Assembly (NCBI GenBank): GCA_050251615.1 | Contig: JBFWMM010000001.1 | Coordinates: forward strand, 88,687-152,686 | Reading direction: 5' to 3' | DNA: 64,000 nt | Source of the DNA: Phycisphaerae bacterium | GTDB taxonomy: Bacteria; Planctomycetota; Phycisphaerae; Sedimentisphaerales; Sedimentisphaeraceae | Shown: positions 35,825-45,327 of the stretch, piece by piece | How positions within the stretch are numbered: the stretch's first letter is position 1 | How the letters are laid out: the number at the start of each line of letters is the position of its first letter | The notes under the pieces: generated by a model | The model's input: only the letters and a program-made list of their open reading frames with translations | Told to the model about the DNA's origin: nothing | Databases searched by the model: none | Made by a program: the position numbers and the translations under genes

Positions 35825-38800
35825 TTATTCCGCCAGCAGCTTTACGGGCCCGAGCAGACCGCCCGGCTCTTTTTTCCAGTCCGAGCCAACCCTGATATTG
35901 GTATTCGTAATGCGCTGCTCTGCGGGTTTGGCGCTGTCTGAAATCAATCTGTTGCGCCAGCTGTTTACCACTGTTACTTCAAGCTCATTATCACCGTTCT
36001 TGATTACTCCTGTCGCTTCTATCCTGAACGGCTTAATCCAGGTTATTCCAAGATCGCTGCCATTAAGTTTAACCGAAGCAATACCAACGTCCTGAACATT
36101 GGCAAGTTCAATCCAATATCGTTTGCCGGTTGTGATTTTCTCTGCGCTGAATGCTGTCCTGTACGTTGCGGGGCCGGAATAGTCGCAGATTGCGTTCTCT
36201 TTTATACTTCTCCAGTCTGCAAGCGCGTTAAAAACAACTTCTCCGCAGCCGCCGTACTCAGGCGGGAAGTTTACACTCCAGGGGCCCTTGATCGTCATCA
36301 CGCTTCGCTTCGCGGGGAAGTTCGGCTTGCCGTTGCCGCTAACGGATTCAGAAATCTCATCATCGAATACGACAATGAGCGAACCGTTCGGGCCGAATTC
36401 AAGCGGGAGAGTGGTTTTGCCGTCTTTCTGAGAAAATGTCGTTGCAGTTGATACTTCACCGGTAACGGGATTCCATATCTGTGGCTGCCGGCCGCTTACG
36501 CGGAATGTGCAGTTCGAGCGGATTGCATCGGTGCAGAACGAGGTTACAAAATACACGTCTTTGCCGTCTATATTGTAATGGATATAGTCGATGTTGGCGT
36601 TGGCGGGAAGGGTGCAGCTGAAATCGGGATCGATGCCTTGCGATTGGAGGTATTCATGCGTCGTCATGCCGCTGATAAGCTTGCCTTTGCCGGTTTCTTT
36701 CCTGTCCCACAGCGAGGCGGCTGTTTTCCTGAAGAACTCCTGAGCCTCCTTGCCGCCCGAGAGGCTCACCATCCGTTCGGGCTTTTCCCCGAGCACGGTA
36801 GCTCCGTCGTGCAGCAGCTCCGCAACCTTCTCCAGCGCTGCTTTTGAGAGTACTCTGTGCGCCGGCAAAGCGAGCAACTTGTAGCTTGTGCCACTGGGAG
36901 TTACGATATTGCCCGCCTGATCTACCGAGAGCTGCAATAAAACATCCTCGTTTGTTACATCATAATCGTAGCCCGGCAAAACTCCCGCCGGGTCTGACTC
37001 CTTCAGGCCGAATATGTTTGGGACATGGTCGCCGTAGTAGTAGAGCGCGTCCGCCTGGAATTTTCCCTGCTGCAAGACGTACTGCACGCGCGAAATGTAG
37101 TCCATAAACCCGTCGCAATAAGGCCACCATGTTACCTGCGGGTTGATGTGGGTGCCGGCGAAGTATTCCTGGCCGGGCAGCCCCATCTCTTTCGGCGAGC
37201 AGGTAAATGTATGGAAGAAGATGAGGTTGAGCCCCGAGCAGAATTCGTGGTTCATGCTCGGCAACTGTGATGCCCAGAGCACATCGTTCCAGTGCCGGCC
37301 GATTGTGGTAAAGGATTCCGCGCCCACAAGCTGTTTGCCGTAGATATGCGCGGCGGATGCCGCCTGCTTTACGAAGAATCTCTGCGGCGGCGTGGGGCGG
37401 TGCGGTGAGGGCGCCCAGAACTCGCTCATCATTATGCTGCTGTGGGAGTAGTTTTTGAGCCCGTCAAATGGTCCTGCGTGCGGGCCAGCGGATTCCGGCT
37501 GAATGCCGATGCCGTATTCATCTGCTCTTTCGGCGAAACGCCGGTAATGGTTTTCGCTGATGCAGTTTCCGATGGTCTTTCTGAAATCTGCCAGAAACGC
37601 GTTACTCGCCTCGCGGCTGTCCACAATCTTCCCTGCGATTACGGGCAGATACTGCTTGATGTCGTAGCCGCAGTAATCGAAGAATTCGCGCTCCATTTCG
37701 GGCGTCCAGTTCATTCCCCCGCATTCCCAGCTGTCGGTTTCGAGCTGCGTCAGGACGGTTCCCGCGAGCGGGCCTGCGAGCTCAAGCAGGGGGCTTACGT
37801 TTCTGTTCCAGTAGTCATCAAACGCCTCTACGCTGAGGTGATCGATTACTCGTCCCTGCCATTTGCCGCTTGATGTGGAGACGTGTGAGTTTGCAACTGT
37901 ATAGCCGAATCTGAGGATTGTCCAGCTGCCTTGCGGGGCGTTCCAGTCGAGCGAGCCATCCGGCTGCAATTTGTCGGATACGTCAATAATCTCTGAGCTG
38001 AAAACATCCTCCTCGCCTGCGGTTGCGGGCAGGTCGGTAAGGAGGAATGTCGTATCGGGTGCGCTCATGCCGATCTCGCTGAAAGCGCTTTTAAGAGCCA
38101 GATCTCTAATCGGCGCCACTACTCTGTTGCGTGCAACAATCTTTCGCCCGTTCTCATCGAGCATGGTCAACTCTGCTATTTGAACATTTCGCGGATTATC
38201 AGGGAATTTGGGGTCGTAAGATTCTGTAACCAGGATTGTGAGCTCTGCCGTTTCCTGCGGCGCGAAGAAAATTTCCGAGCCCGTCAGCTTGACTGAAATG
38301 TCAAAGGATGTGTCTTTGCACTTAATGCGGCAGCTCTTTGCTCCGTATCCCTGCCTGCCTTCGATTTTGATGCCGCTGATCGTTTTTTTGCCTGCAAACT
38401 CCAATTTGAGCCACTCGGGGTGTTGGGAAGTGGGCCCCTGCCCCTGCTCTGTGCCGCCGCTTACCCAGAATGTATCGGGGTTTCCGTCAAAAGCTGCATC
38501 GGCAGGGTAGCCGCGCTGGCTTGAGCTTGCGCTGAATTCAGCCGCGTTTTTATCGGTTTTGTTTTTGTATGCAAGTACGCAGATGTCTCTGTAAAAACCG
38601 TCTCTGGCGGGTGGTTCGGGAAGTGAAACTGACTGACGGGGAGTTGTCTGAACCTCTGACCACGTGAGAACTTTCGCCGCATATTTGCTTGTAACGCCGG
38701 GGCCGCCGAGATTCCAGCCGCTCATAATGGAGAGGCCAAGCTGCAAATCAAGCCTGTTCGCCTCGTGCAGGGCGTGGAGATAAAGCTCTCTCCAGGCGGG

Positions 38801-39070
38801 CGAGCCGAACATCGGCCCCTCGGGCACCTGCGCATTGCCGCGCTGCTCTGCGCCGCCGGCATCGAAAAGCATTGCGCCGCTGAAGCCTTTGTCTGCCATA
38901 GCTTCGAGGTCTTTTGTGATTGCTTCTTTTGTTACGTTGCCGTTGAGCCACCACCACCAGCATCTCGGGCCCGATTGCGAGGTTGGAGATGTGAAGTTGC
39001 CTGTAAGCAGTTCGCCACCGGATGAGGCAAGCAGAATTGTAAAACAAATTAAAACAGCCAGTCTTTTCAT
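35825..39070 (-). CDS. GH106-type alpha-L-rhamnosidase with an inserted F5/8-type C module
   Basis: PRCWWWWLNGNVT, DLEAMADKGF, TDSWE, KQAASAAHIYGK..GAESFT, CSGLN..FHTF; insert AAFDGNPDTFW. Confidence 0.8.
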   Translation of the reverse strand: MKRLAVLICFTILLASSGGELLTGNFTSPTSQSGPRCWWWWLNGNVTKEAITKDLEAMADKGFSGAMLFDAGGAEQRGNAQVPEGPMFGSPAWRELYLHALHEANRLDLQLGLSIMSGWNLGGPGVTSKYAAKVLTWSEVQTTPRQSVSLPEPPARDGFYRDICVLAYKNKTDKNAAEFSASSSQRGYPADAAFDGNPDTFWVSGGTEQGQGPTSQHPEWLKLEFAGKKTISGIKIEGRQGYGAKSCRIKCKDTSFDISVKLTGSEIFFAPQETAELTILVTESYDPKFPDNPRNVQIAELTMLDENGRKIVARNRVVAPIRDLALKSAFSEIGMSAPDTTFLLTDLPATAGEEDVFSSEIIDVSDKLQPDGSLDWNAPQGSWTILRFGYTVANSHVSTSSGKWQGRVIDHLSVEAFDDYWNRNVSPLLELAGPLAGTVLTQLETDSWECGGMNWTPEMEREFFDYCGYDIKQYLPVIAGKIVDSREASNAFLADFRKTIGNCISENHYRRFAERADEYGIGIQPESAGPHAGPFDGLKNYSHSSIMMSEFWAPSPHRPTPPQRFFVKQAASAAHIYGKQLVGAESFTTIGRHWNDVLWASQLPSMNHEFCSGLNLIFFHTFTCSPKEMGLPGQEYFAGTHINPQVTWWPYCDGFMDYISRVQYVLQQGKFQADALYYYGDHVPNIFGLKESDPAGVLPGYDYDVTNEDVLLQLSVDQAGNIVTPSGTSYKLLALPAHRVLSKAALEKVAELLHDGATVLGEKPERMVSLSGGKEAQEFFRKTAASLWDRKETGKGKLISGMTTHEYLQSQGIDPDFSCTLPANANIDYIHYNIDGKDVYFVTSFCTDAIRSNCTFRVSGRQPQIWNPVTGEVSTATTFSQKDGKTTLPLEFGPNGSLIVVFDDEISESVSGNGKPNFPAKRSVMTIKGPWSVNFPPEYGGCGEVVFNALADWRSIKENAICDYSGPATYRTAFSAEKITTGKRYWIELANVQDVGIASVKLNGSDLGITWIKPFRIEATGVIKNGDNELEVTVVNSWRNRLISDSAKPAEQRITNTNIRVGSDWKKEPGGLLGPVKLLAE

Positions 39071-39324: not shown

Positions 39325-40728
39325 TTAGAGCTCTATGCCGAAGTAGTTCTTTGCGTTGTTGAAAGAGATATTTTCGACCATATCGCCGAGGAGATCCATA
39401 TCGCGCGGGATAAGCCCGTTTTCTGCATCATTGCCGAGTATGTTGCAGAGGATTCGGCGGAAATACTCGTGCCTGGGATATGAGAGCAGGCTGCGTGAGT
39501 CTGTCAGCATGCCGACAAACCTGCTCAGTAGCCCGAGATTGCTCAGCGCTTCGATCTGCTTTTCCATGCCGTCTTTCTGGTCGAGGAACCACCATCCCGA
39601 GCCGTACTGCATCTTGCCGGCGATTGAACCGTCCTGGAAGTTGCCGATCATTGTGGCCATAAGCTCGTTGTCGCGGGGGTTCAGGTTGTACAGAATCGTC
39701 TTCGGGAGGCTGTCGCTCATGTCGAGGCGGTTGAGCATCTTCGAGAGCGATTCTGCTATCGGGTAATCTGCGATGGAGTCGAAGCCTGTATCGGGGCCGA
39801 GCGCGTTGAACATACGCGTGCTGTTGTTTCTAAGTGCGCCGATATGGAGCTGCATTGTCCAGCCTCGGGAGTGGTCGAGCAGGGCGGTTTCGTGCAGGAC
39901 GGCGGATTTAAACTTTTCTGCTTCATCCGTCGAAAGGGCCTGCTTTGCCCTTATCTTATCGAAAATCGCGCTCACTTCTTTATCAGTGTAGTCTGCGGCG
40001 TAGGGGCGGTCGAGACCTCTGTCCGAGATTCGGCATCCGATTTCGTGAAAGAACGCATGTCTGATGTCGAGCGCCCTTATATAGCTCTCGAAGCTGAATA
40101 CATCCATATCCGCAAGAGAAGCCAGCTTGTCAATCCATTGATTGAGCGCGTCAAGATTCTCTACCGCCATCGCCTTGTCGGGGCGCCAGGTTGGCAATAC
40201 TTTCACCTCAAAGCTGTCAGCGGCTATTTTTGCGTGATGTTCGAGCGAGTCTGTCGGGTCGTCAGTCGTGCAGACCGCCGCCACGTTCATCTTGCGCATA
40301 AACTCGCGCGCGCTGTAATGGTTGCGGATCTGCTCGTTGCAACGCTCGTAGATGCTCTTAGCTGTCTGTGGGCAGAGCAGTTCATCGATGCCGAACCAGC
40401 GTTTCAGCTCAAGATGTGTCCAGTGGTAGAGCGGGTTGCGAAGCGTATGGGGCACGGTCTGCGCCCATTTCTCGAACTTCTCCCAATCGCTTGCGTTGCC
40501 CGTGCAGAAGCGTTCGGGCGTGCCGTTGGTACGCATGGCGCGCCATTTGTAATGATCGCCGTAGAGCCAGGCCTGCGTGATATTCTCAAACTTCTCATCA
40601 TCTGCAATCTGCTTCGGGGGCAGGTGGCAGTGGTAGTCGAAGATGGGCATATCTGCTGCGCGATCGTGGTAAAGCCTGCGGGCTGTTTCCGTTTGAAGTA
40701 GAAAATTGTCCGATATGAAACTTGTCAT
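39325..40728 (-). CDS. uxaC: Uronate isomerase
   Basis: DYHCHL, GDHYKWRAMR, NPLYHWTHLEL, GSGWWFLD, GMLTDSRS.LSYPRHEYFRR. Confidence 0.97.
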   Translation of the reverse strand: MTSFISDNFLLQTETARRLYHDRAADMPIFDYHCHLPPKQIADDEKFENITQAWLYGDHYKWRAMRTNGTPERFCTGNASDWEKFEKWAQTVPHTLRNPLYHWTHLELKRWFGIDELLCPQTAKSIYERCNEQIRNHYSAREFMRKMNVAAVCTTDDPTDSLEHHAKIAADSFEVKVLPTWRPDKAMAVENLDALNQWIDKLASLADMDVFSFESYIRALDIRHAFFHEIGCRISDRGLDRPYAADYTDKEVSAIFDKIRAKQALSTDEAEKFKSAVLHETALLDHSRGWTMQLHIGALRNNSTRMFNALGPDTGFDSIADYPIAESLSKMLNRLDMSDSLPKTILYNLNPRDNELMATMIGNFQDGSIAGKMQYGSGWWFLDQKDGMEKQIEALSNLGLLSRFVGMLTDSRSLLSYPRHEYFRRILCNILGNDAENGLIPRDMDLLGDMVENISFNNAKNYFGIEL

Positions 40729-40788: not shown

Positions 40789-42240
40789 TCATACAACGTA
40801 GGTTCTTGCTGCCGTCGTGCCGCCGTGTCCTGTCCAGTTGGTGTGGAAGAACTCGCCGCGGGGTGAATCGAGGCGCTCGTAGGTGTGCGCTCCGAAGTAA
40901 TCTCTTTGGGCCTGAAGCAGATTAGCGGGCAAGCGCTCCGCGCGGTAGCCGTCGAAATAGGCCAGCGCGCTGGATATGGCCGGCATCGGGATGCCCAGCT
41001 CAACCGCCGCCACGATAACGCGCCTCCAGGCTGCCTGTGCGTTTTCCACGGCATCCCTGAAGAACGGGTCGAGCAGGAGGTTTACAAGCTCGGGGTTGTT
41101 GTCGAAGGCTTCCTTGATCTTGCCCAGGAACGCCGAGCGGATGATACAGCCACCGCGCCACATCAGTGCGATGCTGCCGTTGTTGAGGTTCCAGTTGTAT
41201 TCCTTTGCCGTTGCGCGCATGAGCTGGTAGCCCTGTGCGTAAGAAACAATCTTGCTTGCGTACAGCGCCTGCTTGAGGTCTGCAACGAGAGCCGTCTTAT
41301 CGCCTTTATACTTCTTTTCGGGGCCGCTGAGAATCTTCGCCGCTTTAACGCGCTCGTCTTTGAGCGCCGAGAGGCAACGCGCGAAAACGGCCTCGGTAAC
41401 GAGCGTTAGCGGCTGGCCGCTGTCGAGCGCGGCTTCGGCCGTCCATTTGCCCGTGCCTTTCTGGCCGGCGGTGTCGAGAATCATATCAACAACAGCGTTT
41501 CCGTCTTCGTCGCGGTATTTGAGGATGTCGCGGGTGATTTCGATGAGGTACGAATCAAGCTCGCCTTCGTTCCATTCCTTGAACACTTCGTACATCTCTT
41601 CGTTGCTCATGCCGAGCCCCTGCTTCATCAGCTGGTATGTTTCGCAGATCATCTGCATATCGCCGTATTCGATGCCGTTGTGCACCATCTTCACGAAGTG
41701 CCCTGCGCCGTTCTCGCCTACCCACTCGCAACATGGTTCGCCGGAGCCGGTGTGTGCGGAAATCTTCTGGAATATAGGCTTCACGGTTTCCCAGGCGGCA
41801 GGCGAACCGCCGGGCATAATCGACGGGCCGAGAAGCGCGCCTTCTTCGCCGCCTGAAACGCCCGTGCCGATGAAGAGCTTGCCTTTGCTCTCAACGTATT
41901 CTGTGCGGCGAATTGTGTCGGGGAAGTGGCTGTTGCCGCCGTCGATGATGATGTCGCCGTCGTCGAGGAGTGGGAGAAGTTGCTCGATGACCATATCAAC
42001 GGGCTTTCCCGCCTTGACCATTATCATCACCTTGCGCGGGCTTGTCAGGCTTGCAACCAGCTCTTCCGGGCTGTGGCAGCCGATGATGTTCTTGCCGCTC
42101 GCACGGCCTTTGATGAATTTATCCACAACGCTTGTCGTGCGATTGTAACAGGCTACTGTGAAGCCCTTGCTTTCCATATTGAGGATGAGGTTTTCCCCCA
42201 TCACTGCCAAACCGATTACTGCAATATCTGCTTGTGCCAT
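40789..42240 (-). CDS. gnd: 6-phosphogluconate dehydrogenase (decarboxylating, NADP)
   Basis: [45 protein letters not shown] and AQRDYFGAH motifs. Confidence 0.97.
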
Positions 42241-42289: not shown

Positions 42290-43363
42290 TTATCGTTTTA
42301 CTCTGGCATTTCCTGCCCAGATGCTCCAAAGCTGGTCTTCATCGGCGGGCTGAGCGTAATCAGTGAGCATTGTCGCGGCCAGTGCACCGCTTGCCCAGCC
42401 GAATCTTGCGCATTTCTGCACGTCCCAGCCTTTAAGTATGCCGTAAAGCAGGCCGCCGACGAATCCATCGCCGCCGCCGATGCGGTCAAGAACGCCAATC
42501 TCGCGTGGCATTATAACTTCCCAATCTTTTGAGTCTGTTACGACGGCGCCCCACATATGCAGGTTCGCCGAGATGACCTCACGCAGCGTTGTGGCGAAGT
42601 ATGTTGCGTTGGGAAAGGCCTTCTGAACGCGGCCGATCATCTCTTTGAAGCCGTCTATCTTCTCCTCAAGACCTTTTCCTCCCGATTCGGGGCCTTCAAT
42701 GCCGAGGCAGAGCTGGAAGTCCTCTTCGTTGCCGATGAGGATGTCGCTCAGGGACGCTATTTCAGCGAAAGCCGCGGAGAGTTCTTTTTCTCTACCTTTC
42801 CAGAAGCTTGCTCTGTGGTTGAGGTCAAAGGAAATGCGCGAGCCGTTCGCTTTGGCTATCCTTGCTATGTCGAGGCAGAACTGGCTTGTCTTGGGTGAAA
42901 GCGCGGCGATAAGGCCCGAAAGGTGAACGATTTCAACGCCTTCCTGCGCGAAAATCCTGTCCAGGTCGAAATGCTCGCTTGAAAGCTCCCGCCCGACTTC
43001 CCCCGCTCTGTCGTTCTGCACCCTCGGCCCTCTTGATCCCCAGCCGCTGTCGGCCATGTTTATCTGGTGGCGGTAGCCCCAGGGGCCGGCTTGGTCGAAT
43101 TCAGGCGCTTCAAAATCCATCCTGCGGCTCTTGATGTTGTCCTTGATGAAATGCGAAACGGGGCTCCCCTTTACGAAAGCCGTCAGCACCTTGACCGGCA
43201 GCCCCAGATATGAGGCAACGCTTGCAACATTGCTTTCGGCGCTTGTCGCCTGCATCTTGAATGTGTCGCTACAATGAAAGGGCTGGGAGCCCGCGGGAGT
43301 GAGCCGCAGCCCCATGCTCGTGGGGATGAGAAGGGCGTATTTCTTTTGTGAAGTTGAAGCCAT
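42290..43363 (-). CDS. PfkB-family sugar-acid kinase (KdgK-like)
   Basis: ISFDLNHRASFW, GNEEDF, C-terminal DRIGGGDGF anion hole. Start at ATG 43363 (AAGGA RBS). Confidence 0.8.
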   Translation of the reverse strand: MASTSQKKYALLIPTSMGLRLTPAGSQPFHCSDTFKMQATSAESNVASVASYLGLPVKVLTAFVKGSPVSHFIKDNIKSRRMDFEAPEFDQAGPWGYRHQINMADSGWGSRGPRVQNDRAGEVGRELSSEHFDLDRIFAQEGVEIVHLSGLIAALSPKTSQFCLDIARIAKANGSRISFDLNHRASFWKGREKELSAAFAEIASLSDILIGNEEDFQLCLGIEGPESGGKGLEEKIDGFKEMIGRVQKAFPNATYFATTLREVISANLHMWGAVVTDSKDWEVIMPREIGVLDRIGGGDGFVGGLLYGILKGWDVQKCARFGWASGALAATMLTDYAQPADEDQLWSIWAGNARVKR

Positions 43364-43379: not shown

Positions 43380-44651
43380 TTATTTTTCAAATCTGTTGCG
43401 CCAAGCCCAGAGCCCGAGCGCGGGGTTTGAGATGTAGAAAATCTCTTCGCCGCCAACGCGGTTATAGCCGTCTTTGAGCTTCTCGGGGTCGTAGAGCTTT
43501 GTCATTTCTTCGAGGTCTGCGAAGGCGAAGTTTACCGATTCAACTTCTTCGCGCGTGAGGCCGCCGGTGCAGTAGGTAATTTTGAACCTGCCCTCGCTTG
43601 AGCCGTGGATCAGGTGCGCCGCGGCGCTGAGGTTGCCGGCGAGCTCGGGCTCACTCTCAATGAGCTTAAGCACCTTCTCTGAGCCTACGTACCCGTACTT
43701 TCTTATAAGCCGGTCGATTTCTTTGTCTTCCCCGAACTCCTTCACACCCGGAGCAAGCACAATCAGCTCGCCGTCATCGGCCATTGCCATACGCGTGCGA
43801 TAGATGCTCTTATTGCCCAGCCACGTGCTTTTGAACTCATCGGGCTCAAGGTAAACAACGCATTTCTTCAGCGGCTCATCGAGCATTTGAAAATTGACTT
43901 CAAGCGAAAGCGCCGCGGCGAGCTCGTAGCATTCAATATCATCGCCGATAAACATCCCGCGAACAACCTGCCCGTTATCGGTGCCCTCGATGACAGTCTG
44001 TACATAGAGGATTGGTGGCAATGAGTCCATGAAGTTGTCGCTGGCGTAGTTGAGCACCTTTCTCACGGGGCTGTCGGCGCGGCCCATAATCCGTTCCATG
44101 CCGTACGCGGCGCCGAGGAAGTGGCTCTTGTTGATGCCTTCGGAGCCGCCGGTGCCGACGAAGATGTTTTTGTTGTAGTTGGCCATGCCTATCACTTCGT
44201 GCGGCACAACCTGCCCGACCGAGAGTATGAGGTCGAATCCGCCGCCCGAGAGCAGGCTGTTGACCTGCGCGGGCCAGTCAAAGCTGACCTTCCCTCCGCT
44301 CACTTCGCTGACATATTCACCCGGAACGATGCCGAGAGTTTTCAGGTCGCTGCGCCAGTTGTGTACGCGAAACAGCTCGTGCGGCATCCTGCCGAACATT
44401 CTGCTGATCTCGCTGTTGGTCATAGGGGCGTGGGTGCCGAGCGCCGGCAGGACGTCTGTGAGCCTGTCGCCGAGAATCTCCCATGCGTATTCTGTGAGCA
44501 GGCCCGCGCGGCTGTGAAAACGCGTCGCGTCCGGCGGTATTGCCAGCACCTTCCTGCAATCTGTAAAATGTTCCAGAGCCTCTGCCAGGCCGGATCTTAA
44601 ATCGGCCGCTGAGAGCGAGTCGTCCCTGGAACCTCTTTTGTAGTACAACAT
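43380..44651 (-). CDS. LarA (lactate racemase) superfamily / DUF2088 2-hydroxyacid epimerase
   Basis: PPDATR, ALGTH, VPHE, NYNKN and INKSH align by eye with the LarA D/R, H, H, K and H active-site positions. Confidence 0.8.
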   Translation of the reverse strand: MLYYKRGSRDDSLSAADLRSGLAEALEHFTDCRKVLAIPPDATRFHSRAGLLTEYAWEILGDRLTDVLPALGTHAPMTNSEISRMFGRMPHELFRVHNWRSDLKTLGIVPGEYVSEVSGGKVSFDWPAQVNSLLSGGGFDLILSVGQVVPHEVIGMANYNKNIFVGTGGSEGINKSHFLGAAYGMERIMGRADSPVRKVLNYASDNFMDSLPPILYVQTVIEGTDNGQVVRGMFIGDDIECYELAAALSLEVNFQMLDEPLKKCVVYLEPDEFKSTWLGNKSIYRTRMAMADDGELIVLAPGVKEFGEDKEIDRLIRKYGYVGSEKVLKLIESEPELAGNLSAAAHLIHGSSEGRFKITYCTGGLTREEVESVNFAFADLEEMTKLYDPEKLKDGYNRVGGEEIFYISNPALGLWAWRNRFEK

Positions 44652-44867
44652 TGATACACCTTTCTGTTACCCTTTATCCGCCTCGCTTTGGGAGGCCGGA
44701 TAATCTATATGATACAGATATTAAATCAGAATGCGATATAAACTTGGCTCTCAACGCAATTTTTTGACGTAAAATAGCGCTCGGAGCCTTCACCTTGTGT
44801 GAGAACCGGCGTATTGTGGTTTTGTTTTTCAGCTTACGACAACGCAGTTGCAACGGAACGGCAAAAA

Positions 44868-45104
44868 CACGAAAAGCACGAAAGCGAAGCAATTTAAAAT
44901 TTCATGTTTAAGATTTAAAAATCTCCGTACCTCCGTGAACTCCGTATCAAACATATAAACCTATCGGCAGTAATGAGTTAGTGCAGGAAAGGCGCGTTGC
45001 GGTGGGCTTTGTTTACTTAGTATTATTTGTGGTTTCGTCCGATTGGCAGGGCGCTTGTGCACCTCCGCTCTATAATCTTCGTGTGCTTCGCGCGCTTAGT
45101 GGTT
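44868..45104. repeat. Short-period degenerate repeats in the intergenic region
   Basis: CACGAAAAG-CACGAAAG (44868); CTCCGT x3 (44923, 44931, 44940); CTTCG/CTTAG x3 with 9-bp period (from ~45077). Confidence 0.5.
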
Positions 45105-45141
45105 AATCAATACAAACTCCGCTTGTGTGGCTAAAGTGTCG

Positions 45142-45327
45142 TCAGTCGTCAAGTATCTCATCTTCCGGTCTGGCGATTACCTTGTAATCTTCTTCCAACC
45201 AGCCGTTCAGGTCGGCAAGTTTGCAACGTTCGCTGCAAAATGGGAAAAACTTGTTTTTAGATGGCAGCTCAATTGCGGTGGCACATTTGCGGCATTTATA
45301 CATCGTATTGTTTGATTTTTCGGTCAT
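45142..45327 (-). CDS. yacG: DNA gyrase inhibitor YacG
   Basis: CRKC...FPFCSERCKLADLNGWL zinc finger. Confidence 0.9.
   Translation of the reverse strand: MTEKSNNTMYKCRKCATAIELPSKNKFFPFCSERCKLADLNGWLEEDYKVIARPEDEILDD

Follow-up and report, generated by a model that had tools for sequence, protein, structure and literature searches.

The window, a stretch of 64,000 nucleotides of DNA from a Phycisphaerae bacterium, carries on its minus strand a group of four genes in the order LarAH18, kinase, gnd and uxaC. The spacers between them measure 16, 49 and 60 nt. The first gene (43380..44651) encodes a LarA-family 2-hydroxyacid epimerase that depends on the nickel-pincer cofactor (NPN), with the Pfam domain Lar_N, assigned to group LarAH18 by NF052594 (647.8 bits, cut-off 500) and annotated as a putative hexonate epimerase. 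The protein shares about 30% identity (E 4e-35) with 4NAR from T. maritima, which was deposited as a 'putative uronate isomerase'. Its predicted reaction is the interconversion of D-mannonate and D-gluconate or that of the corresponding 6-phosphates. The second gene (42290..43363) encodes a PfkB-fold kinase of 357 aa, with an ATG at 43363 and the stop codon at 42290-42292. It is followed by gnd (40789..42240; TIGR00873, 776 bits), for a decarboxylating NADP-dependent 6-phosphogluconate dehydrogenase, and by uxaC (39325..40728; PF02614, 678 bits; NF002794, 643 bits), for the glucuronate (uronate) isomerase UxaC. No terminator-like sites were found on the minus strand between these four genes, and the scans for promoters and terminators did not rise above background. 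The genes are presumably co-transcribed. A GH106 alpha-L-rhamnosidase-family glycoside hydrolase gene (35825..39070, minus strand; PF17132, 530 bits) lies co-directionally 254 nt 3' of uxaC and is not conserved across the loci of the kinase orthologues. It may belong to the same transcription unit, although this is uncertain, and would then supply glycan fragments that contain uronates.

The kinase protein

The longest reading frame of the kinase gene starts at TTG 43456, and this start was rejected. It would create an overlap of 77 nt with the LarAH gene, and the orthologues (354-361 aa) have nothing that corresponds to the 31 extra residues. The ATG at 43363 lies 16 nt past the LarAH stop (43380), and residue 17 of the protein read from it pairs with residue 21 of the TM0067 KdgK at the start of the alignment.

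The Pfam model PF00294 (PfkB) recognizes the protein with 66.4 bits (cut-off 25.8), the aligned part being residues 142-331 only. The best matches in NCBIfam are KdgK-like families, every one of them far under its cut-off. The kinase half of NF041633, a model for fusions of a KHG/KDPG aldolase with a kinase, gave 158.4 bits (cut-off 700), and the KdgK equivalog models NF052444, NF041332 and NF040938 gave 32.7, 93.4 and 39.9 bits against cut-offs of 400, 440 and 400. The gluconokinase models TIGR01313 (P-loop) and TIGR01314 (FGGY) do not match the protein. Its AlphaFold (AF2) model has a pLDDT of 93.3 and a pTM of 0.92, and the top Foldseek matches are 2afb, 4gm6, 3ktn and 1v19, with TM scores of 0.73-0.94. 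The best superposition, on the TM0067 KdgK (2afb), reaches a TM of 0.85-0.94. As modelled, the protein has the alpha/beta ribokinase fold with a beta-sheet lid, a fold that leaves the substrate undecided. The nearest characterised protein, both by sequence and by fold, is a KDG kinase, 2afb, and the names given to its relatives by JGI and UniRef include 2-dehydro-3-deoxygluconokinase. Both facts speak for a plain second KdgK paralogue, whose place beside LarAH18 and gnd would have no bearing on its substrate; the scores far below every KdgK equivalog cut-off speak against it.

The kinase shares with the TM0067-type KdgK and the kinase half of NF041633 the PfkB fold, a size near 350 aa, the GxGD aspartate and the conserved arginines of sugar-acid kinases. 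Like KdgK, it is predicted to phosphorylate a six-carbon acid at its terminal CH2OH group. However, the identity to these enzymes is 26-34%, and residues of the substrate motifs that are invariant among the KdgK relatives are replaced, which again disfavours a plain KdgK. The di-glycine (GG) substrate/hinge motif of the PfkB family has become T40-S41 (ATSAESN in the window, ATSAE[ST]N in the clade); at its second position glycine is found in 37/37 outgroup KdgK-like sequences and serine in 33/33 clade members. E43 and N45 of the same region are retained. The N-terminal G-E-x-M has changed to T15-S16-M-G18, and the C-terminal P-G-D to T334-D-Y336 (also given as G334 to T). These replacements are found throughout the clade, in members of as little as 41% identity, and in every LarAH18-linked copy, the lowest of them at 61%. 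The clade has in addition gained R80, W95, H99 and N117, all invariant, and has kept R20, R119 and R184, which are common to the KdgK relatives. The DxxGxGD motif is present as D293-R-I-G-G-G-D299, with the catalytic D299; G296 and G298 do not vary across 38 relatives, in which D293 and D299 are at least 90% conserved. Judged from the sequences, this signature fits a sugar-acid kinase with a remodelled pocket, the mapping onto ligand contacts being a predicted one. The protein is best described as a sugar-acid kinase of a distinct PVC clade and as a predicted hexonate 6-kinase, with gluconate as the most likely substrate and mannonate as a possible one.

The metabolic setting in the genome

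The assembly comprises 2.68 Mb with a completeness of 97.4% and contains five PfkB genes. The one on contig C32 is a much better KdgK-like match than the window kinase, with 266.7 bits to the kinase half of NF041633 as against 158.4. It shares a 4-bp overlap with the gene of a KDPG/KHG aldolase (PF01081), the sole one in the genome. A gene for UxuA lies on contig C5, so that the classical branch of UxuA, KdgK and KdgA is separate from the cluster and uses a different PfkB paralogue as its KdgK. The window kinase is 34% identical to this kdgA-coupled KdgK, a further point against a plain KdgK paralogue, and is very unlikely to be the KDG kinase of the cell.

Neither a P-loop gluconokinase of the GntK/IdnK type (best match 20 bits, cut-off 113.75) nor an FGGY gluconokinase was found in the genome, the three FGGY kinases being XylB-like, a rhaA-adjacent kinase and AraB. 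Neither G6PD nor Edd was found in the genome, and gnd is present as a single copy (one PF00393 match). Taken together, these absences leave the single Gnd without a visible source of 6-phosphogluconate except a hexonate kinase. An SDR-type D-mannonate oxidoreductase is encoded on contig C21 (NF006132, 377.8 bits, cut-off 281). LarB (285 bits), LarC (204 bits) and LarE (255 bits) are all above their cut-offs, and LarAH18 is the sole Lar_N protein of the genome. The machinery for the nickel-pincer cofactor (LarB, LarC, LarE) appears to serve LarAH18 alone.

An earlier note on this DNA had described a kinase that is KdgK-like by sequence and located between a putative epimerase and gnd, with the phosphorylation of gluconate to 6-phosphogluconate as the missing step, and had suggested looking for another gntK or kdgK in the genome. 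The description of the protein and of its place is borne out by the KdgK-like matches in NCBIfam and to the fold of 2afb, by NF052594 upstream and by TIGR00873 downstream. The search revealed, elsewhere in the genome, a further kdgK that is more canonical and shows translational coupling to the only kdgA, and no gluconokinase of either the GntK/IdnK or the FGGY type. The missing step is likewise supported, as neither G6PD and Edd nor a gluconokinase of a known family was found that could feed the single gnd.

Distribution and neighbourhood of the orthologues

Orthologues of the kinase were found in at least 549 genome stretches from species-representative genomes of Planctomycetota, Kiritimatiellota, Verrucomicrobiota and Lentisphaerota. 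Across the genome and metagenome sets their identity is 61-90%. The best 120 protein matches, with 84-100% identity, carry names such as 'sugar kinase' and '2-dehydro-3-deoxygluconokinase' (JGI, UniRef) and include proteins from Pontiella, Anaerohalosphaeraceae, unclassified Planctomycetes, Verrucomicrobia and Kiritimatiellales MAGs. This family is highly conserved and has a sharp boundary: among the full-length representatives in a library clustered at 50% identity, one level lies at 60%, the next at 41-48%, and the rest do not exceed 38%. The clade is monophyletic in the tree and stands apart from the clades that hold kdgA-linked kinases.

Gene neighbourhoods were compared for 80 loci kept from the at least 549 stretches, with kinases 74-90% identical to that of the window. 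At 66 of them at least one of LarAH18, gnd, SDR-type uxuB and uxaC lies co-directionally within 5 kb of the kinase. The individual partners (same strand, within 5 kb) are LarAH18 at 46 loci, uxuB at 45, gnd at 41 and uxaC at 18, and gnd is the commonest immediate downstream neighbour. The partner SDR is assigned to the D-mannonate oxidoreductase subfamily and is neither a KduD nor an IdnO nor a 2-ketogluconate reductase. Unlike the KdgK relatives, the kinase is never linked to kdgA, which lies within 5 kb at 0/80 loci and thus weighs against a plain KdgK. The order uxuB-larAH-kinase-gnd-uxaC is found in Phycisphaerae and other Planctomycetota, and the order uxuB-kinase-gnd-larAH-uxaC in Kiritimatiellales. 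Pirellulales and Verrucomicrobiae have uxuB-kinase only, with LarAH18 elsewhere. At some Kiritimatiellales loci a UxuA-like dehydratase is encoded upstream of the kinase and is divergently transcribed, an arrangement that would suit a KDG kinase.

The phyletic pattern of the kinase, as distinct from that of KdgK, tracks LarAH18, gnd and uxuB rather than kdgA or uxuA. Twenty-five kinase-positive genomes were searched, including ones in which the kinase does not adjoin LarAH18. LarAH18 is present in all 25 (frameshifted in two), gnd in 24 and G6PD in 23. As most relatives have G6PD, the argument that there is no other source of 6-phosphogluconate holds for the lineage of the window only. None of the 25 has a GntK/IdnK or an FGGY GntK over the cut-off; nine weak FGGY matches are near 280 bits. 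UxuA was detected in three of these genomes (not found in 22) and KdgA in 18 (not found in seven). Some of the genomes with such absences are incomplete MAGs, and one (G001) is the draft of an isolate. In the draft genome of the isolate Roseibacillus ishigakijimensis the kinase, LarAH18 and gnd are present, and no KdgA, UxuA or second paralogue was found. These absences count against a kinase devoted to KDG. KdgA abuts the second KdgK-like paralogue in nine of the 25 genomes and lies 3-7 kb from it in three; it adjoins the window-type kinase in none. Four of the 25 have KdgA and no second long KdgK-like paralogue (E <= 1e-30), so that the window-type enzyme is their only long KdgK-like kinase. 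This is the pattern expected of a KdgK, and a dual specificity for KDG and a hexonate is possible there.

An even sample of 301 Planctomycetota contained 13 genomes with both LarAH18 and the kinase, four with the kinase only, 14 with LarAH18 only and 270 with neither. LarAH18 was accordingly present in 13 of the 17 kinase-positive and in 14 of the 284 kinase-negative genomes, related genomes not being independent observations. The association of the two proteins is strong and not obligate. One of the kinase-only loci (L114) reads uxaE-uxuB-kinase at a contig end, where LarAH18 may be unassembled; the neighbourhoods of the others (L115-L117) gave no clue.

Other kinases beside LarAH18

Genomes that have LarAH18 and lack the PfkB kinase are instructive. 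Two of them (G026 and G316) encode a gluconokinase of the TIGR01313 type directly beside LarAH18, with 180 bits against a cut-off of 113.75. The junction is a 3-nt gap in one genome and a 1-nt overlap in the other, and the other flanking genes are unrelated. These are the sole P-loop gluconokinases among the 30 genomes searched. A sister genus of the same family includes a genome with uxaC-PfkB-LarAH18. In a third LarAH18-only genome the gene directly next to LarAH18 encodes an FGGY kinase. The remaining 11 of the 14 LarAH18-only Planctomycetota have no adjacent kinase, their neighbours being unrelated (MFS, SDR, peptidase M17, DprA and others) or without a Pfam match.

A similar alternation was seen at 80 diverse metagenomic LarAH18 loci. 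The window-type PfkB kinase is present at 24 of them (61-88% identical), a P-loop GntK at four (48-56% identical to the one scored above) and an FGGY kinase at two, for example in the order uxuB-FGGY-larAH-gnd. A different PfkB clade with an SGGE motif occupies the same slot at one locus (L177), and a weak kdgA-like match occurs at one. Kinases of the TIGR01313 type stand at or near LarAH18 at L100, L101, L144, L181, L207 and L210, and FGGY kinases at L106, L162 and L178. Three unrelated kinase folds thus alternate in one conserved context, a classical sign of non-orthologous displacement. The P-loop TIGR01313 and FGGY TIGR01314 gluconokinases have the reaction predicted for the window kinase and share its slot by LarAH18, whereas the PfkB fold is unrelated to either. 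The proposal of the earlier note, that a PfkB gluconate kinase replaces the GntK/IdnK or FGGY types non-orthologously, is probably right, since the canonical types fill the slot beside LarAH18 where the PfkB kinase is missing.

A proposed hexuronate route through gluconate

A comparable route has been proposed for T. maritima by Rodionova et al. (2012), as related in PMC3750489 and PMC6978723, from mannonate by GntE to gluconate and further by GntK and Gnd. The genes form a gnd-uxaRED-gntEK operon, apart from a kdgAK-uxuBA operon (PMC3750489). Desguin et al. proved that LarAH19 and LarAH20 possess GntE activity (PMC7583248); free D-mannonate is epimerised to D-gluconate by LarAH19, LarAH20 and LarAH15 (PMC7583248, PMC11770544), and LarAH15 and LarAH10 were added as gluconate epimerases (PMC11770544). 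Table S1 of Desguin et al. lists for group 18 SDR proteins (36%), 6PGD (32%), ribokinase-family kinases (16%) and UxaC (12%), without interpretation (PMC7583248). Our literature search yielded no description of a gluconokinase or mannonate kinase of the PfkB family, and mannonate kinase and 6-phosphomannonate only in PMC6978723.

The cluster in the window resembles the T. maritima system of GntE (LarAH20), GntK (FGGY) and Gnd, as a LarA-family epimerase, a kinase and gnd are clustered with uxaC and a fructuronate reductase. Both genomes also have a separate kdgA-kdgK unit for the classical branch. In contrast to T. maritima, the kinase has the PfkB and not the FGGY fold, the epimerase is a putative one of group LarAH18, and the lineage is PVC and not Thermotogae. 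A further difference is the lack of zwf and edd in the genome studied here, where the route would be the only conceivable supply of substrate for Gnd. As a concept the pathway is known. New are the PfkB fold of the enzyme in the kinase slot, its pairing with LarAH18 and its breadth across the PVC group.

The enzyme is probably a PfkB-fold hexonate 6-kinase that acts as a gluconokinase (EC 2.7.1.12) in a hexuronate bypass; we infer the substrate of the kinase and the direction and substrate of LarAH18. Glucuronate would be isomerised to fructuronate by the UxaC of the window, and fructuronate would be reduced to D-mannonate by the SDR-type mannonate oxidoreductase of contig C21. The nickel-pincer epimerase LarAH18 would convert D-mannonate to D-gluconate, which the PfkB kinase would phosphorylate with ATP to 6-phosphogluconate. 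Gnd would finally yield ribulose-5-phosphate, CO2 and NADPH. Whichever hexonate it phosphorylates, the kinase is almost certain to feed Gnd in a bypass that depends on LarA. This would be the only apparent reason why the genome retains gnd, LarB, LarC and LarE. The LarAH18 group of putative epimerases would in addition acquire a concrete partner and a substrate hypothesis, and gluconokinase (or mannonate kinase) activity would gain a third, independently evolved fold.

The two central steps could also run in the reverse order, with the kinase as a D-mannonate 6-kinase and LarAH18 as a nickel-pincer 2-epimerase of 6-phosphomannonate and 6-phosphogluconate. Such an order was measured by Valk et al. 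in extracts of L. suebicus, in which mannonate is phosphorylated by a mannonate kinase and then epimerised by a 6-phosphomannonate 2-epimerase, with no genes assigned (PMC6978723). Both routes lead from mannonate to 6-phosphogluconate in two steps and on to Gnd, and are redox neutral from uronate to ribulose-5-phosphate; L. suebicus, however, is a Firmicute, its kinase acts first, and its gene candidates are GntK homologues. The reverse order would agree with the Km of 120 mM of the related LarAH19 for free mannonate (PMC7583248), which suggests another native substrate, the activity of LarAH18 itself being only predicted. It would also agree with the loci of Pirellulales and Verrucomicrobiae, where the kinase directly follows the mannonate-producing SDR. 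On the other hand, the slot beside LarAH18 is filled elsewhere by gluconokinases of the GntK/IdnK type, and the E. coli enzyme GntK is cited by Valk et al. as not using mannonate (PMC6978723). The assayed LarAH20, LarAH15 and LarAH10 act on unphosphorylated mannonate or gluconate, and in the four kinase-only Planctomycetota without LarAH18 6-phosphomannonate would be a dead end. The reverse order is therefore possible, if doubtful. If it held, two orphan activities of L. suebicus would receive their first gene assignments, and LarAH18 would be the first LarA-family enzyme known to act on a phosphorylated substrate.

A kinase for 2-ketogluconate, 5-ketogluconate, L-idonate or fructuronate, or a broadly promiscuous hexonate kinase, is unlikely. 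PfkB KdgK-like enzymes can bind 2-keto-6-phosphogluconate (2dcn), LarAH18 is annotated only as a 'putative hexonate epimerase', and the SGGE kinase of L177 shows a different PfkB clade in the same slot. Nevertheless, Gnd accepts only 6-phosphogluconate and gnd is the gene met most often directly downstream of the kinase (41/80 loci having it as a partner), and the conserved SDR is of the D-mannonate oxidoreductase subfamily and not KduD, IdnO or a 2-ketogluconate reductase. The plain KdgK of the database annotation is very improbable in view of the sequence, locus and genome evidence given above, and would in addition leave the Gnd of this genome with no source of substrate.

With the kinase as the predicted gluconokinase, a systematic mis-annotation ('2-dehydro-3-deoxygluconokinase' or 'sugar kinase') would be corrected in hundreds of genomes of Planctomycetota, Kiritimatiellota, Verrucomicrobiota and Lentisphaerota. 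Metabolic models that use the KdgK name allow uronic acids no other path than that by KDG and the Entner-Doudoroff aldolase. An output of ribulose-5-phosphate, NADPH and CO2 would alter the redox and carbon balance that is predicted for degraders of polysaccharides in the sea and the gut.

Conservation of the kinase and its cluster partners

The window kinase (42290-43363, minus strand), a predicted hexonate 6-kinase, is the most conserved of the cluster proteins across four PVC phyla. Its orthologues at the 80 loci retained (L015-L094) have a median identity of 84.5% to the window copy, followed by gnd (80%), uxaC (61%), the putative hexonate epimerase LarAH18 (56%) and the SDR-type uxuB (45%). 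Such conservation reflects either a rate of evolution that is unusually low among sugar kinases or a recent spread of the gene. In two Pirellulaceae MAGs (G010 and G011; loci L076 and L080), LarAH18 is found as two adjacent frames; G011 has, in addition, a split kdgA and a gnd with an in-frame stop. These broken genes are probably assembly errors, not pseudogenes.

Metabolic and genomic context

In a search of the whole genome that contains the window, gnd was present and neither glucose-6-phosphate dehydrogenase nor Edd was found, so that this bacterium lacks an oxidative pentose-phosphate entry from glucose. Glucose-6-phosphate dehydrogenase was likewise not found in two relatives (G014 and G022). 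On another contig of the window's genome (C32, 27518-29290, corresponding to L012:7519-9290), kdgA and kdgK overlap by 4 bp, an arrangement mirroring the fused KHG/KDPG aldolase-kinase proteins of NF041633 (NCBIfam).

In the metagenome contig Ga0315278_10015748, the uxuB-larAH-kinase-gnd slot (L177:4872 onwards) is occupied by a different KdgK-like PfkB clade. This kinase, which bears the motif HVSGGEFNV and shares 35% identity with the window kinase, may represent a second independent PfkB recruitment. In G032, a genome with the kinase at a contig end, uxaE (tagaturonate epimerase; L114:5589-7040; PF16257, 533 bits) lies upstream of uxuB-kinase. The proposed uronate route is also fed by galacturonate in this lineage, as in T. 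maritima.

At six Kiritimatiellales loci (L026, L027, L037, L038, L042, and L058), the gene for a long UxuA-like mannonate dehydratase is oriented divergently to the kinase-gnd-larAH operon. The dehydratase, about 490 aa as called, matches NF003027 (288 bits) and has 32% identity to the UxuA of the window's genome. One control region may be common to both mannonate-use branches at these loci.

Upstream of the window operon, no convincing ORF was found in a gap of about 490 nt (44652-45141). The gap is flanked by a 61-aa protein with CxxC...CxxxC cysteines (45142-45327, minus strand), possibly a YacG-type zinc ribbon, and by ribosomal protein L27 (45933-46178, plus strand), identified by its N-terminal sequence.
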